In this document: positions 471-9,609 of the stretch, one piece after another
Position numbering within the stretch: the first letter of the stretch is position 1
How the letters are laid out: each line of letters begins with the position of its first letter
NCBI GenBank assembly: GCA_023136205.1
Contig: JAGLRQ010000007.1
Coordinates: 1 to 11,154 of the forward strand
DNA: 11,154 bases
DNA from: Candidatus Auribacterota bacterium
GTDB taxonomy: Bacteria > Auribacterota > UBA6266
Direction of reading: 5' to 3'
Notes under the pieces: generated by a model
Seen by the model: the letters and a program-made list of their open reading frames with translations, nothing else
The model's database searches: none
Told to the model about the DNA's origin: nothing
Program-made: the position numbers and the translations under genes

Positions 471-1271
471 TCAAAACAATCCCAAGTACCAATCAACCAA
501 TTTGTTGCCCCAGAGAATTGATACCACAGCACCTATGGCAAGATAAGGACCAAATGGAACTTTGCCTTTCCATGTTTTGTTTTTGATTAAAAGGGCTGTG
601 CCTCCGATAACTGTTCCAACAATTGATGAAATCGCTATACTCAAAAAAACAACAAGTACCCCGCCAAAAGAACCTATCATCGCAATCAGCTTAACATCAC
701 CAAAACCCATCGCATCCTTTTTAAGAAGTTTTGAACCGGCCAGGGACACCGCGCTAAGAACAGCAAAACCTGTCACGGCTCCAAGAAAAGACCTGTACAA
801 ACCAAGATACCACTTTGCTTCACCCTGAAGATGCGGGAAAAATGACGAAGCAAGAAGAGCAAAAACAAGCCCGATAATATTACATTCATCCGGTATCACA
901 AAATGTTTTAAATCAATAAATGAGACAACAATAAGAAGAGAAAAGAACATTATCCTGAAAACAACCTCCGCGGCACCCGAGGAGAAAAGAAATGCTGTCA
1001 GGAAAAGAATTCCTGTAAGCAGCTCTACTATAAAATAGACAGGCGAGATAGGCTTCCCGCAATTTCTACATTTACCCTGAAGGATAATATAACTTAATAA
1101 TGGAATATTATCATACCACTTTATTTTTGCCTTGCAGTTAGGGCAATGTGATAGTGGAAATATAATTGAAAGCTCCTCAGGAAGACGATAAATACAAACA
1201 TTTAAAAAACTTCCAACGATTGTTCCGAAGATAAAAAAGACTGATGACCAAAATATATTAATTGGATTCAT
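471..1271 (-). CDS. pilD: Type IV prepilin peptidase / N-methyltransferase (peptidase A24 family)
   Basis: 266-aa polytopic membrane ORF with an N-terminal four-Cys cluster (CPNC...CRNC). Both catalytic Asp contexts are present (FVIPDE and GFGDVKL), typical of A24 prepilin peptidases. ATG at 1271 overlaps the upstream stop as ATGA, and no obvious SD precedes it. Confidence 0.9.
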   Translation of the reverse strand: MNPINIFWSSVFFIFGTIVGSFLNVCIYRLPEELSIIFPLSHCPNCKAKIKWYDNIPLLSYIILQGKCRNCGKPISPVYFIVELLTGILFLTAFLFSSGAAEVVFRIMFFSLLIVVSFIDLKHFVIPDECNIIGLVFALLASSFFPHLQGEAKWYLGLYRSFLGAVTGFAVLSAVSLAGSKLLKKDAMGFGDVKLIAMIGSFGGVLVVFLSIAISSIVGTVIGGTALLIKNKTWKGKVPFGPYLAIGAVVSILWGNKLVDWYLGLF

Positions 1272-1555
1272 TGTAATTCATCACTTAAATCCTTTAATTC
1301 AGGATTTACACCTTTAACTAAATTTAATTTCCACTCACGATGCCAGTTTTTTAATTGTTTTTCACAATTAATCGCGTCTGTTATTTGTTCAAAAAACTCG
1401 TAATAAACCAAAAAGCTGCATTTATATTTCAATGGGAACTTTGCTCCGATACCTCTTTTATGTTCTGCTAATCTGCGTAATAAATCATTTGTTACACCGA
1501 TGTAGAACGTGGTTCTTTTGTAGTTCGACAATATGTAAACATATCCGCTGTTCAT
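1268..1555 (-). CDS. Small stand-alone GIY-YIG (URI-domain) nuclease family protein
   Basis: GYVYIL...FYIGVTNDLLRRLAEHK...E..K.W.R.WK is the GIY-YIG core as seen in small UPF0213/YhbQ-like proteins. The ORF track starts at a TTG (1579) whose first 8 codons are simply the translated hairpin repeat. I call the first ATG (1555, MNSGYVYIL...) as the start. Stop TGA 1268..1270 overlaps the pilD ATG. Confidence 0.88.
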   Translation of the reverse strand: MNSGYVYILSNYKRTTFYIGVTNDLLRRLAEHKRGIGAKFPLKYKCSFLVYYEFFEQITDAINCEKQLKNWHREWKLNLVKGVNPELKDLSDELQ

Positions 1556-1564
1556 GTTGTTTTT

Positions 1565-1592
1565 AAGATCCCGAAACAAGTTCGGGATGACA
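1565..1592 (-). repeat. 28-nt hairpin repeat, copy C (canonical orientation TGTCAT-CCCGAA-CTTGT-TTCGGG-ATCTT on the minus strand)
   Basis: Plus strand reads AAGATCCCGAAACAAGTTCGGGATGACA, identical over 28/28 nt to 1729..1756. It forms an 8-bp stem ATCCCGAA/TTCGGGAT with a 5-nt loop. It ends 9 nt upstream of the GIY-YIG ATG. Confidence 0.9.
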
Positions 1593-1594
1593 TG

Positions 1595-1647
1595 TTAGGT
1601 GTTCGGAATAACATTTTAGGTATTTTAATATCTTAAGTATTCGGAAT
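1595..1647 (+). repeat. Two decayed half-copies of the hairpin repeat (right arm only)
   Basis: TTAGGTGTTCGGAAT (1595..1609) and TTAAGTATTCGGAAT (1633..1647) match 13/15. Both resemble the right arm plus flank of the full repeat (GTTCGGGATGACATGTT versus GTTCGGAATAACATTTT, 14/17). No complementary left arm is present. Confidence 0.6.
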
Positions 1648-1676
1648 TTTTTCCACTTATTACCATGTTGCCTCAC

Positions 1677-1704
1677 TGTCATGCTGAACTTGTTTCAGCA
1701 TCTT
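1677..1704 (+). repeat. 28-nt hairpin repeat, copy B (inverted relative to the other two, covarying stem)
   Basis: Plus strand reads TGTCAT-GCTGAA-CTTGT-TTCAGC-ATCTT, versus TGTCAT-CCCGAA-CTTGT-TTCGGG-ATCTT for the reverse complement of the other copies (24/28 identity). All 4 differences are two compensated base pairs (C:G to G:C and C:G to T:A). Flanks and loop are unchanged. Confidence 0.9.
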
Positions 1705-1728
1705 TTCTCCTTTACATCCTGGCCTTTC

Positions 1729-1756
1729 AAGATCCCGAAACAAGTTCGGGATGACA
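1729..1756 (-). repeat. 28-nt hairpin repeat, copy A
   Basis: Identical to 1565..1592. On the minus strand it starts 18 nt after the aroE stop. It forms an inverted pair with copy B across a 24-nt spacer. Confidence 0.9.
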
Positions 1757-1774
1757 GTTTGGATATTTATCGAA

Positions 1775-2686
1775 TTACAATTCTTTTACCTTAAAATGTT
1801 TTTTTAGGGCTTCTTCCATTGCTTTGTAAGCGTTTAAAAATGGCTGTTTCCTGCCCGTAAACTCTTCCATCCATAAATCAGATGCCCACATTCCCTGGTA
1901 GAGGAGCATTAATAACCCTCCACAACATTTCAGCCCCTTCTGTTTAGCATCTTTTAATAAGGGAGTTTCCAAAGGATTATAAACAAGGTCAAACACAAAC
2001 TGTTCAGAATGCAAAACTTCTGTGTTGATACTTTTTCTTGTATCTCTGCCCATTCCAAGAGGAGTGGCGTTTACAATTATATCTGCTTCTTTTACATGTT
2101 CATCAACTGCGCTTTCGGCAACATTTCTTATCTCCGGCTTATATCTATCTGTCCCGTATGATGCGGCAAGATGCTTTACTAACTCAGAAGCCTTAGAATT
2201 ATCCACATCAAAAACAAAAATTTTCTCAGCATCTTCAACAAGTGCTCCTGCCGCAACTGCTCTCCCCGCGCCTCCAGCACCCGCAATAAAAACTTTCTTA
2301 TCTTTAAAAAATTTTACAGCTTTTGAATTTAAGCCAAATTTGTTCTTATATGCCCCAAGAAAACCATAAACATCTGTATTATATCCCCAGAGAACTCCAT
2401 TTTTGTTCACAATAGTATTAATCGCGCCAATAATGTTTACGTAATCATTTTCGTCATCAATTTTATCTACTAAACCTTTTGCGTCAACCTTATAAGGAAT
2501 AGTTACATTACACCCTAAATATTCACCAGAGTCCCTGATTTCTTTAATTTTGGATTCTAGTTCTTCTGGAAGGATATCGCATAACTCATAAGTAACATCA
2601 ACACCGAGAGCCTTAAACCCCGCGTTCTGGAAAACAGGTGAAGCCGAATGGCCTAATGGATGGCCCAGAAGAAGTACTTTTTTCAT
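1775..2686 (-). CDS. aroE: Shikimate 5-dehydrogenase
   Basis: 303-aa ORF with the N-terminal GHPLGHSASP substrate motif, NVTIPYK, and the glycine-rich NADP site GAGGAGRAV. The ATG sits 2 nt after the leuA stop (TAAccATG) with no strong SD, suggesting translational coupling. Confidence 0.92.
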   Translation of the reverse strand: MKKVLLLGHPLGHSASPVFQNAGFKALGVDVTYELCDILPEELESKIKEIRDSGEYLGCNVTIPYKVDAKGLVDKIDDENDYVNIIGAINTIVNKNGVLWGYNTDVYGFLGAYKNKFGLNSKAVKFFKDKKVFIAGAGGAGRAVAAGALVEDAEKIFVFDVDNSKASELVKHLAASYGTDRYKPEIRNVAESAVDEHVKEADIIVNATPLGMGRDTRKSINTEVLHSEQFVFDLVYNPLETPLLKDAKQKGLKCCGGLLMLLYQGMWASDLWMEEFTGRKQPFLNAYKAMEEALKKHFKVKEL

Positions 2687-7703: not shown

Positions 7704-9362
7704 TCACTTTTTAAATACAGCCCCAGTTCCCGCGGATGTAACCATCTCGGAATACCTTGCAAGGTAACCGGTTTTGATTCCCGGTTTTTTCAATTTCATA
7801 GTTCTCTTTCTCTTCTTTATTTCATCAGAACTAATACCAAGTTCAAGTTTCCTGTTTGGAATATCAAGAGAAATAATGTCTCCGTTTTTAACCAGAGCAA
7901 TAAGGCCGCCCTCCGCAGCCTCAGGAGAAACATGTCCTATGCATGGCCCCCTTGTTCCACCTGAAAAACGCCCATCAGTAATAAGCGCGACAGATTTTCC
8001 AAGGCCCCTGCCTATAATAGCTGCCGTGGGTGATAGCATTTCTCTCATCCCGGGACCGCCTTTAGGCCCTTCATATCTTATAACAACTACCATTCCCTTT
8101 TTTACCTTACCCTGCATTATCGCGTTCATTGCATCTTCTTCTTTATTAAAACATATGGCTTTACCTTTAAATTTCATCATTGATTTTTCAACAGCTGACT
8201 GTTTAACTACGGCCCCGCTTTCCGCAAGGTTGCCCCGCAAAATAGCTATCCCTCCTTGTTTATGATGAGCTCTCTTTAACGGACGAATAACATCTTCATC
8301 CTTTATCACAGCTTCGGCGGCAATATTGCCGGTGGTTCTGCCCGAAACCGTAGGCCTCGCGGCAACCTTACTACCCAACCTTTTAAAAACAGCCGGTATC
8401 CCACCCGCATTATGAAGGTCCTCCATAAAGTACCCGTCGGGAGAAGGATTCATTTTTGCAATATGAGGAGTAACCCTGCTTATTTTATCAAATAATTCAA
8501 CAGGGATATCCAAGCCCGCCTCATGGGCTATAGCGGTAATATGTAAAACCGTATTAGTCGATCCTCCAAGAGCAACATCAACCCTTATAGCATTTTCTAT
8601 AGATTTACGGTTAACCACCTTTTTAGGGGTTATATTTTTCCTGATAAGCTCAACCGCCCTTATCCCGCTTTCATGGGCTATCCTCTTTTTCTGTGCGGAA
8701 ACAGCAAGTGCTGTAGCACAGTATGGCATTGAAAGCCCCATAGCTTCAGTTGCGCATGCCATAGTATTTGCAGTAAACATTCCCTGACATGAACCGGCAC
8801 CCGGACATGCAACCATTTCAAGCTCACATAATGTTTTTTCTGAAATCTGACCTGCTTTGTATTTGCCAATAGCTTCAAAGGTATCAGTAACCAGGGATGT
8901 TCTCCTACCATAATGCCTTCCTGTAAACATTGGCCCGGCAGTTACAACAATAGCGGGTATATTCAGGCGAAACATCCCCATAATCATCCCGGGGGTTATC
9001 TTATCGCAGTTTGTTAAGAAAACAAGCCCATCCAAAGCGTGTGCGGTAGCTACTGCTTCAATCATATCGGCAATAAGTTCACGAGAGGGAAGAGAATATT
9101 TCATTCCCTTATGCCCCATAGCTATGCCATCGCATATCCCCGGAATACCAAAAACAAAAGGCCTTCCGCCACCGGCATAAACACCATTTTCAATAGCTCT
9201 TTCAAGCTGCTTCATGTCAACGTGGCCGGGAATCAAATCAGTAGCAGAGGAAGCTATCCCAATAAATGGCTTCTTCAAATCACCTTTTGTAACACCGGTT
9301 CCAAACAATAAAGCTCTATGAGGAGCTCTCTCCAACCCTTTTTTAATCGCATCACTTTTCAT
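7704..9362 (-). CDS. ilvD: Dihydroxy-acid dehydratase
   Basis: IlvD/Edd family with conserved Cys-containing contexts ([27 protein letters not shown]) that I read as the Fe-S ligand region. The ORF track starts at ATG 9431, which has no SD and adds 23 residues not expected in IlvD. ATG 9362 gives [19 protein letters not shown], the usual IlvD N-terminus, and follows GGAGA (9371..9367). Confidence 0.93.
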
Positions 9363-9455: not shown

Positions 9456-9497
9456 AAATAAAAAACCCGCCGCCTCTTTTACCGAGGTAGCGGGTTT
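9456..9497 (-). terminator. Intrinsic terminator of the ilv leader (attenuator regions 3:4)
   Basis: Minus-strand RNA reads AAACCCGCUACCUC-GGUAAAA-GAGGCGGCGGGUUU followed by UUUAUUU. The stem has 14 stacked positions with one A.C mismatch and one G.U, is GC-rich, and is followed by a U-tract. It lies about 95 nt upstream of the ilvD start. Confidence 0.82.
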
Positions 9498-9519
9498 AAA
9501 TTTTCAATCTCTGTTGCAA

Positions 9520-9609
9520 TCAGATCCGAACACAGACCACCGCGACCTCGCCCCTTTTAAGGACGAGCACCACAAGCACTAAAAGTAAACTTGTCATAGC
9601 GGCAATCAT
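9520..9609 (-). CDS. ilv operon leader peptide, 29 aa: MIAAMTSLLLVLVVLVLKRGEVAVVCVRI
   Basis: Hand-translated; the ORF is below the ORF-track length cutoff. AGGAGA (9622..9617) lies 7 nt upstream of ATG 9609, and the stop is TGA 9522..9520. There are ten consecutive Leu/Val codons (9588..9559), and 16 of 29 codons are Ile/Leu/Val. It sits between a promoter-like site and a terminator in front of BCAA biosynthesis genes. Confidence 0.75.
   Translation of the reverse strand: MIAAMTSLLLVLVVLVLKRGEVAVVCVRI
9540..9567 (-). promoter_or_regulatory. Attenuator regions 1 and 2 (anti-antiterminator / antiterminator segments)
   Basis: CUCGUCCU (9567..9560, leader codons 15-17) pairs with GGGGCGAG (9554..9547): 6 WC plus 2 G.U pairs, loop UAAAA. 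The overlapping segment GAGGUCGCGG (9549..9540) pairs 9/10 with the terminator 5' arm CCGCUACCUC (9493..9484) and mimics the terminator 3' arm GAGGCGGCGG. Confidence 0.65.

Follow-up and report, generated by a model that had tools for sequence, protein, structure and literature searches.

The window analysed here is a stretch of 11,154 nucleotides from Candidatus Auribacterota bacterium (in the following, Candidatus Aureabacteria; GenBank assembly GCA_023136205.1, contig JAGLRQ010000007.1). Its minus strand carries, in this order, ilvD, ilvB, ilvN, ilvC, leuA, aroE, copies C and B of a short hairpin element, a decayed half-copy and copy A of the same element, a gene for a small GIY-YIG nuclease, and the prepilin peptidase gene pilD. 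The subject of this report is what lies between aroE and pilD. With a probability that we put at roughly 85%, the locus comprises a gene of the Ssn family (site-specific single-stranded DNA (ssDNA) nucleases) together with its cognate hairpins, which are of the type of the Ssn-related motifs (SRMs), and the two form a cassette of ~0.5 kb that has been inserted between aroE and pilD.

Hairpins and nuclease gene between aroE and pilD

Each of the three complete hairpin copies (Table 1) is composed of an 8-bp stem (ATNNNGAA/TTCNNNAT) enclosing a CTTGT loop. Copies A and C read TGTCATCCCGAACTTGTTTCGGGATCTT on the minus strand and copy B reads TGTCATGCTGAACTTGTTTCAGCATCTT on the plus strand; four positions set B apart from A and C (CCCGAA to GCTGAA and TTCGGG to TTCAGC), and these amount to two compensated base pairs. 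The positions and strands of the copies, the full identity of A and C, the compensated nature of the four differences and the 9 nt between copy A and the start codon of the GIY-YIG gene had been described in an initial annotation of the window, and all of these were reproduced here. Copies B and C constitute a tail-to-tail doublet, in which 24 nt separate the 28-nt elements. The similarity between copies slightly exceeds 28 nt, with inverted arms of 30 nt and a direct repeat of 43 nt at 86% identity. All three copies are located on the 5' side of the nuclease gene, at distances of 12-176 nt.

Searching the 11,154 bases of the window with the element pattern, at up to three mismatches, returned these three sites alone, and 200 dinucleotide-preserving shuffles of the window gave 0 matches. 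When folded as ssDNA, each copy is predicted to form a hairpin, the energies lying between -6.7 and -7.7 kcal/mol and the z-scores between -3.2 and -4.3. A literature search on the repeat core returned nothing but unrelated primer coincidences. On the plus strand, copy B together with CTTTTCTCCT (window 1681-1710) scores as terminator-like; this site is antisense to all neighbouring genes and probably incidental. A match of the hairpins to the Rfam family AaHKsRNA41 (26.5 and 20.9 bits at permissive thresholds, against a gathering score of 97) was rejected, because it is generated by the inverted repeat itself.

In the 95-aa protein encoded by the ssn-like gene, the Pfam GIY-YIG domain covers residues 4-78 (E 1.4e-15) and is the sole domain; the only further Pfam match, T5orf172, overlaps the same stretch. 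This agrees with the proportions by which the Ssn family is recognised (~94 aa, with a limit of 150 aa, and no extra DNA-binding domain). No meaningful family for the protein was found in NCBIfam, PADLOC or PHROGs. Sequence and profile searches of the PDB contained no Ssn structure among their matches, the only relatives there being UPF0213 proteins (1YWL, 1ZG2; E 1.5e-05 with the single sequence and 1.9e-08 with the profile). These UPF0213/YhbQ-type proteins are likewise stand-alone GIY-YIG domains of ~100 aa; however, the relation is distant, and it is an Ssn-type C-terminal motif, described below, that characterizes the family of the window protein. We know of no hairpin repeats associated with the UPF0213/YhbQ subfamily.

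Table 1. Features of the aroE-pilD region, given in positions of the window
Feature	Position	Strand	Remarks
ssn-like gene	1268..1555	-	95-aa single-domain GIY-YIG nuclease; ATG at 1555; stop codon and prepilin peptidase ATG overlap by 4 nt
Hairpin copy A	1565-1592	-	TGTCAT-CCCGAA-CTTGT-TTCGGG-ATCTT; ssn orientation; 3' end 9 nt before ssn ATG
Hairpin copy B	1677-1704	+	TGTCAT-GCTGAA-CTTGT-TTCAGC-ATCTT; inverted with respect to A and C
Hairpin copy C	1729-1756	-	28/28 identical to A; start 18 nt past aroE stop codon
Decayed half-copy	1601-1613	-	TGTTATTCCGAAC; 11/13 identical to 5' half of element
Inserted cassette	1272..1777	-	~506 bp; three hairpins, half-copy and ssn; missing at collinear aroE-pilD sites of relatives
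aroE	1775..2686	-	Shikimate dehydrogenase; upstream flank; C-terminus intact; stop TAA, ancestral stop in overlapping ATGA
pilD	471..1271	-	Prepilin peptidase (PilD-type); downstream flank

Kinship with the published Ssn system

Ssn proteins have been described as site-specific ssDNA nucleases consisting of a single GIY-YIG domain of ~94 aa, classified as cd10448 (GIY-YIG_unchar_3) (Chenal et al., Nat Commun 2025, PMC11893778). SsnA of Neisseria meningitidis (94 aa) binds the repeat NTS (CGTCATTCCCGCGMAVGCGGGAATCYRG) as ssDNA only and on one strand only, cleaves just upstream of the hairpin repeat, does not bind RNA, and reduces transformation by NTS-bearing DNA (PMC11893778). The related NTSvar is CGTCATACTCGGGNNNNNCCCGAGTATC, with the layout CGTCAT-ACTCGGG-N5-CCCGAGT-ATC (PMC11893778). 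Typically, ssn genes are flanked by SRMs, which were found in 71% of homologue regions by the published search string, and the biochemistry was shown for four proteobacterial homologues, namely those of N. meningitidis, N. elongata, N. wadsworthii and Wolbachia pipientis (PMC11893778). The search string, HGTCWYN(0-2)YYVSBRHN(0-5)WNVSBRGN(0-2)RNCYNB, matches the NTS consensus.

Homology of the window protein to Ssn was assessed by proxy. Viral contigs were scanned with the 25-nt core of the NTS consensus, and the resulting loci were searched with a hidden Markov model (HMM) of the window protein's homologues, which recovered open reading frames (ORFs) adjoining exact NTS matches. In one of these loci (L235), NTS copies at 7785-7809 (+) and 8141-8165 (-) enclose the gene at 7823-8134; in another (L258), a single exact NTS match lies just upstream of the gene. 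By BLASTP, the window protein is 39% and 44% identical to the ORFs of L235 and L258 (E 1e-28 and 2e-28), the alignments covering 89-90 of the 95 residues. With such NTS-adjacent ORFs standing in for N. meningitidis SsnA (CAX49033.1), the protein would lie within the homology limits set by Chenal et al. (E <1e-10 and at least 75% coverage).

In a family alignment of 16 members, NTS-flanked proteins included, the invariant columns Y7, Y18, G20, H32, E65 and N84 are all kept in the window protein, as is the nearly invariant R28, and judged by these columns the catalytic residues of a GIY-YIG nuclease are in place. The family shares the C-terminal motif KQLKNW.R.WK..L....NP...DL, of which K..W.R.WK..L....NP...DL is invariant, and this motif is kept as well. 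The alignments indicate that the 95-aa protein and proteins with canonical Neisseria NTS repeats at their flanks are homologous.

A corresponding likeness is seen in the hairpins. As in NTS and NTSvar, those of the window are built from a Y-GTCAT 5' flank, a stem starting from AT, a short loop (4-5 nt) and a terminal ATC-Y, and, as in Ssn systems, a sense copy is placed no more than a few tens of nt ahead of the start codon, in a hairpin-gene arrangement resembling an insertion sequence (IS). What sets them apart from published SRMs is the NNNGAA-CTYGT-TTCNNN stem and loop, which is outside the degenerate search string; the failure of the string is located in these stem and loop letters, not in the flanks. 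Judged by sequence, the class has the architecture of Ssn repeats, yet it falls beyond their published operational definition.

The hairpin class across genomes and beside ssn genes

A scan of viral contigs with TGTCAT-N6-CTTGT-N6-ATCTT, in which the six inner stem positions are left free, returned 45 matches with a bimodal distribution. While 16 of the 45 have 6/6 Watson-Crick stems (P about 1e-46), all of them belonging to one of four sequences (GCTGAA, TCTGAA, CCTGAA and CCCCGA), most of the remaining matches are at chance level with 1-3 pairs only. In species-representative genomes, the pattern GTCAT-NNN-GAACTNGTTTC-NNN-ATC was found in at least 152 copies, distributed over at least 120 stretches. 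When the 152 listed genome copies are taken together with the three of the window, 137 of 155 are Watson-Crick at all three free pairs (P about 1e-225); a Y precedes GTCAT in 141/155 and follows ATC in 151/155, in agreement with the SRM flanks. Among the 152 listed genome copies, the outer pair is G-C in 62, C-G in 60 and T-A in 22, and the third pair is T-A in 114 and C-G in 28. Since the flanks are distinct in 149 of these 152, the copies represent separate loci.

The hosts among the matches listed include Sphingomonadales, Rickettsia, many Bacteroidota, Treponema, Gastranaerophilales, Elusimicrobiota, Nitrospirota, Ignavibacteria and several members of the candidate phyla radiation (CPR). 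Like Ssn repeats, the class consists of dispersed, mostly extragenic copies: 38% of the listed copies are positioned inside ORFs of at least 100 aa, compared to 89% of random positions. It is also common in lineages absent from the main text of the published account, namely Bacteroidota, Treponema, CPR and other AT-richer groups. Adjacent listed copies form 52 inverted versus 12 direct pairs. The hairpins are real, oriented elements with GTCAT at the 5' end, ATC-Y at the 3' end, a CTYGT loop and a covarying stem. The initial annotation had proposed that selection acts on a folded hairpin of a wider family; the compensated stems of the further copies, and their occurrence in viral contigs, species-representative genomes and metagenomes, speak for both parts of that proposal.

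Two single occurrences deserve mention. A 3.8-kb contig binned as Nanoarchaeota contains one hairpin copy (L068 2672-2696), which points to a binning error or, alternatively, to a rare occurrence in archaea. In a metagenome-assembled genome (MAG) of Ignavibacterium sp. (L089 1489-1677), five strictly alternating copies follow each other at a spacing of 39-43 nt, reminiscent of bacterial interspersed mosaic elements (BIMEs); one strand carries the CCC stems and the opposite strand the GCT stems, a pairing shared with the window.

This pairing of unlike stems recurs in a metagenome scan anchored on the CCCGAA copy (L348-L467), in which counts refer to the matches listed. There, the inverted partner of CCCGAA is GCTGAA in 52 doublets, TCTGAA in 10, CCTGAA in 9 and CCCGAA itself in 1, and the spacers are mostly 4-43 nt long and are not conserved. 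Copies B and C of the window (GCTGAA then CCCGAA, 1677-1756) constitute one such heterotypic doublet. Loci of the NTS type are likewise composed of TCCCGC sense and CCCCGC antisense copies; the doublets of sphingomonads are often homotypic. Unlike stems would presumably favour two local hairpins over one long duplex between the copies.

The association of the hairpins with ssn-like genes was followed in several data sets. Exact protein look-up provided six homologue families that are 56-68% identical to the window protein. Four of the six are flanked by a hairpin of the class within 300 bp, with the stems GCTGAA, CCTGAA, TCCGAA or GCCGAA, and in the loci of these four (up to 10 kb) no other same-class copy with a perfect stem is present. 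In 36 ssn loci on viral contigs, GTCAT-hairpin-ATC occurs 56 times within 300 bp of the gene and 17 times in the remaining 164 kb, which is an ~18-fold enrichment (odds ratio 17.7, P 9e-31). For the published SRM string, which captures the GC-rich classes, the corresponding counts are 42 near the gene and 5 elsewhere (odds ratio 45), and 24 of the 36 loci have at least one of the two motif types within 300 bp of the gene. Among the metagenome matches listed, seven contigs combine a CCCGAA copy with an ssn-like ORF, and in all seven hairpins lie within ~125 nt of the gene.

The usual ssn locus on viral contigs begins with one antisense copy between about -80 and -115, followed by a sense copy between about -30 and -60, the gene, and a second antisense copy ~20 nt past the stop codon; in loci of ssn homologues, sense copies are usually placed 11-63 nt ahead of the start. 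Of this layout, the window has the 5' half, with B antisense at -123 and A sense at -12, and copy C in addition. The partnership of hairpin and GIY-YIG nuclease that the initial annotation had put forward, including the positioning of copies beside homologous genes, is thus in line with the enrichment, with the homology to NTS-flanked proteins (E 1e-28) and with PMC11893778; the novelty implied by that proposal does not stand, the system having been published in 2025.

Frequently, the 3' hairpin overlaps the ssn stop codon, which results in tails such as ...DPETSSG and ...DAEMSSA (L168 5284-5308; L180 5301-5325; P0042, P0064, P0094). At the other end of the gene, a mechanical call extends the window ORF to a TTG start (1579..1268), and since this longer frame runs across copy A as ..LFRDL.., the 'LFRDL' N-terminal extension is explained. 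Both the hairpin-encoded C-terminal tails and the LFRDL extension are annotation artefacts of the repeat, and ORF calls through hairpins (an MFRDL... start, tails of the ...DPETSSG type) are to be read as such. Peptide strings that the initial annotation likened to those of genome annotations have their origin here, in the stop codon and the odd tails supplied by the 3' copy; they were recovered only as these homologue tails and as the spurious extension in the window.

The genomic contexts of ssn homologues are diverse. Some are located within defence loci (L168 5001-5291, L171 917-1210, L172 5001-5294, L177 5001-5339), the positions being between a type III restriction-modification (RM) methylase and the associated ResIII helicase, between type I-C cas3 and cas5d, and downstream of an MmeI-like RM gene; hot spots of insertion or a functional connection may lie behind such placement. 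One 107-aa Ssn protein is present in identical form in two upstream contexts (L180 4700-5000 versus L182 1628-1900 and L183). The homology between L180 and L182 extends up to the ATC edge of the antisense hairpin at -35 and stops precisely there. L180 additionally contains direct repeats of a ~145-bp unit with the variant hairpin GTCAC-CCCGAA-TTCAT-TTCGGG-GTC.

Several features recall repetitive extragenic palindromic (REP) elements, including BIMEs and REPINs, and their REP-associated tyrosine transposases (RAYTs, Y1 HUH enzymes). These systems, too, consist of short extragenic palindromes arranged in inverted doublets and alternating clusters, their two stem types alternate with orientation (the Y and Z REPs of Escherichia coli BIMEs, which the heterotypic doublets resemble), and a dedicated nuclease gene is flanked by its own repeats. 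The hairpins could, hence, be ordinary REP/BIME elements served by a Y1 transposase (RAYT or IS200-type) encoded elsewhere, with an incidental GIY-YIG neighbour, and their extragenic position, the inverted doublets and the BIME-like alternation of five copies in L089 would suit that explanation. However, the partner gene in the window encodes a GIY-YIG hydrolase and not an HUH tyrosine transposase, and the chemistry of a covalent intermediate is missing; as had been noted initially, no RAYT is present, a Y1_Tnp domain being absent from the ten window proteins scanned. REP elements have a GTAG-type tetranucleotide as their conserved 5' flank, whereas the hairpins described here have GTCAT, as do NTS and NTSvar. 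Given also the ~18-fold enrichment beside ssn homologues and the joint absence of gene and hairpins from empty sites (see below), we consider this explanation very improbable.

The copies might, alternatively, act at the RNA level in an aroE-ssn-pilD transcript, where they would terminate transcription, stabilise the mRNA or regulate the translation of ssn, with no relation to the nuclease. REPs do affect the fate of 3' untranslated regions; in the window, read-through of the operon would transcribe copies A and C in the sense direction, 9 nt separate the end of copy A from the ATG, and the whole gap folds better than its shuffles (z -4.5). An intrinsic terminator, however, combines a GC-rich hairpin with a T-run on the transcribed strand; 3' of the hairpins, no T-run is found on the coding (minus) strand, and no terminator-like site is present on that strand between 1200 and 1900, the sole such site being on the opposite strand. 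No Rfam family reaches its threshold on the hairpins (best 26.5 bits versus a gathering score of 97). Furthermore, the orientation alternates in the window, either orientation is found among dispersed copies, the asymmetric flanks show the same conservation as those of NTS, which is recognised as DNA, and SsnA of N. meningitidis lacks RNA binding (PMC11893778). A role of this kind is, in our judgement, improbable.

A number of points weigh against the assignment of the locus to the Ssn system. The family comparison was one by proxy, with NTS-adjacent ORFs in the place of SsnA CAX49033.1, and membership in CDD cd10448 is putative. The SRM string finds no site on either strand of the window, nor beside the close homologues, which means that membership in the motif family is by shared architecture and not by the published definition. 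In two of the six close homologue families (P0094, P0097), no hairpin of the class is nearby, and in the window the hairpins are confined to the 5' side, the usual copy past the stop codon missing. An ssn gene is found in the same 8-kb block as dispersed copies in only 4 of 120 genome stretches and 7 of 120 metagenome stretches listed, which is, however, expected of a dispersed repeat. Approximately 48 kb of Aureabacteria DNA (the 11-kb window and ~37 kb from relatives) contain no dispersed copies, leaving a host-wide role unsupported. Finally, the published enzymes are proteobacterial and act on GC-rich repeats of the NTS type; for the nuclease of the window, which comes from a Candidatus Aureabacteria host, cleavage at its hairpins is a prediction.

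Cassette insertion, possible mobility and role

Homologues of aroE place the window in Candidatus Aureabacteria, a named MAG protein being 82% identical. Evidence on the origin of the locus comes from contigs of Candidatus Aureabacteria relatives. In five of them (L304-L308), whose aroE is 61-82% identical to that of the window, the gene order is leuA-aroE-pilD-aroK, aroE and pilD overlap by 4 nt with nothing in between, and ssn and hairpins are absent from that place; a further, short contig (L309) ends at aroE. No hairpin copies are present in L304-L309 (~37 kb) or in the rest of the window. The empty aroE-pilD junction of the relatives identifies the ~506-bp hairpin-ssn unit as an insertion, and since gene and hairpins are missing together at the empty sites, they arrived together, which is in favour of the initially proposed co-mobilisation. 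The ATGA overlap with pilD has been recreated by the ssn stop codon. Three contigs of the same population, L310 and L001 among them, are identical to the window across the cassette.

At the junctions of the cassette, GAATTG on the left is matched by GAATTA on the right. Microhomology or a duplication could account for this repeat, which is, however, too short to convince as a target-site duplication; moreover, a DEL-type C-terminus is normal in the ssn family. One assembly, GCA_023139245.1, holds a cassette-bearing (L001) as well as a cassette-free (L308) aroE-pilD contig, with aroE 82% identical; the bin of this MAG, hence, mixes two related populations. A functional link of ssn to competence and to pilD, which belongs to the type IV pilus machinery, was considered and rejected, because the coupling of aroE and pilD is ancestral in relatives devoid of ssn; the adjacency of ssn and pilD is, therefore, a property of the insertion site.

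Insertion between two conserved genes is also what the phage seg and mob genes display, and the gene could be a free-standing GIY-YIG homing endonuclease with a double-stranded DNA (dsDNA) target at aroE/pilD, copied in by repair and accompanied by the hairpins as passengers. Weak matches to the PADLOC 'HEase' model and to TIGR01453 would point in this direction, the latter reaching, however, 16.8 bits against a cut-off of 56.05. The 95-aa protein lacks the C-terminal DNA-binding domain by which GIY-YIG homing endonucleases are defined, its homologues are scattered over many unrelated sites instead of sharing a single homing site, and the association with hairpins is systematic. We regard homing as highly unlikely. 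The association of gene and hairpins across phyla is left unexplained by homing, by an RNA-level function and by REP/RAYT elements alike. For annotation, the GIY-YIG gene and the three hairpins are to be treated as one Ssn/SRM cassette and not as a REP cluster next to an unrelated hypothetical gene.

For the cassette as an Ssn nuclease gene with its cognate hairpins, a course of action can be outlined in analogy to the published biochemistry of the four Ssn homologues, from which each step is inferred. When DNA becomes single-stranded, in replication, repair, uptake or transfer, the GTCAT-stem-loop-stem-ATC strand would fold as a hairpin. The 95-aa nuclease would bind this hairpin through its unpaired flanks and its shape and would hydrolyse the same strand a few nt 5' of GTCAT, while dsDNA, RNA and the complementary strand would be spared. 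In the window, the predicted cut sites are just 5' of copies A and C on the minus strand and just 5' of copy B on the plus strand. At this locus, the system could serve to restrict or modulate repeat-bearing ssDNA that comes in or becomes exposed, as in N. meningitidis, or else to propagate the cassette and its hairpins.

This second role leads to a different emphasis, according to which a selfish mobile system is what the cassette and the dispersed doublets primarily constitute. By acting on ssDNA hairpins at the ends of the cassette, Ssn would drive the spread of its gene and of the non-autonomous hairpin doublets, in analogy to IS200/IS605 and RAYT/REPIN but by means of a hydrolytic nuclease, any effect on incoming DNA being secondary. 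Such a system would account for the presence or absence of the unit at aroE-pilD, for its insertion at a 4-nt gene overlap with both frames left intact, for hairpins being found in the sampled Aureabacteria DNA only where ssn is found, for the occurrence of ssn homologues in unrelated contexts, including RM and CRISPR-Cas loci, for the break of homology between L180 and L182 precisely at a hairpin edge, and for cores identical over 18 fixed bases across many phyla. In addition, the layout [antisense][sense]-ssn-[antisense] places the outer copies on one strand, like the ends of IS200/IS605 elements. With the latter, the ssn unit in many loci shares this strandedness of the outer hairpins, the position of folded ssDNA hairpins recognised near the ends, strand specificity and small size; it differs in having neither TnpA nor TnpB, no defined left-end and right-end cleavage sites, and a nuclease of an unrelated family. 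Chenal et al. themselves drew the analogy to REP/BIME and IS200/IS605 and raised the same IS-like hypothesis (PMC11893778). On the other hand, GIY-YIG hydrolysis proceeds without a covalent intermediate, so that host functions would have to supply strand transfer; neither an excision product nor a circle nor a clear target-site duplication was observed; the cassette of the window has no 3' hairpin; and transposition is unreported for any Ssn. We therefore take a primarily selfish system to be possible, though rather doubtful.

A more far-reaching and quite tentative proposal is that the hairpin-ssn unit is mobile to this day and moves by a mechanism of a new kind. Together with host repair or replication, the 95-aa hydrolytic ssDNA nuclease would bring about both the insertion of the cassette and the multiplication of doublets, the heterotypic stems (CCCGAA/GCTGAA) would keep the hairpins folding separately, the aroE-pilD locus would represent a fresh insertion, and the GAACTYGTTTC class, with its identical core in different phyla, would be a horizontally spreading lineage missed by the SRM definition.

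Irrespective of the mode of spread, the sub-class outside the search string, the pair of filled and empty sites and the heterotypic doublets go beyond the main text of the 2025 paper and are modestly new. The sub-class GTCAT-NNNGAA-CTYGT-TTCNNN-ATC may explain some of the ~29% of ssn homologues that were scored as SRM-less, the filled and empty sites form a clean pair in which gene and hairpins arrive together, and each new pair of Ssn and hairpin is a candidate for a sequence-specific ssDNA-cutting reagent.

Apart from the cassette, a region upstream of ilvD (window 9457-9609, minus strand), for which Rfam returned only below-threshold matches (Trp_leader 26.6 bits, BcKCsr2 27.1 bits), contains a leader ORF of 29 aa (9609..9520), MIAAMTSLLLVLVVLVLKRGEVAVVCVRI, with a high proportion of Leu, Val and Ile. 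Behind it come a GC hairpin and a T-run (about 9497..9457), and the whole arrangement looks like a classic ilv-type attenuator.

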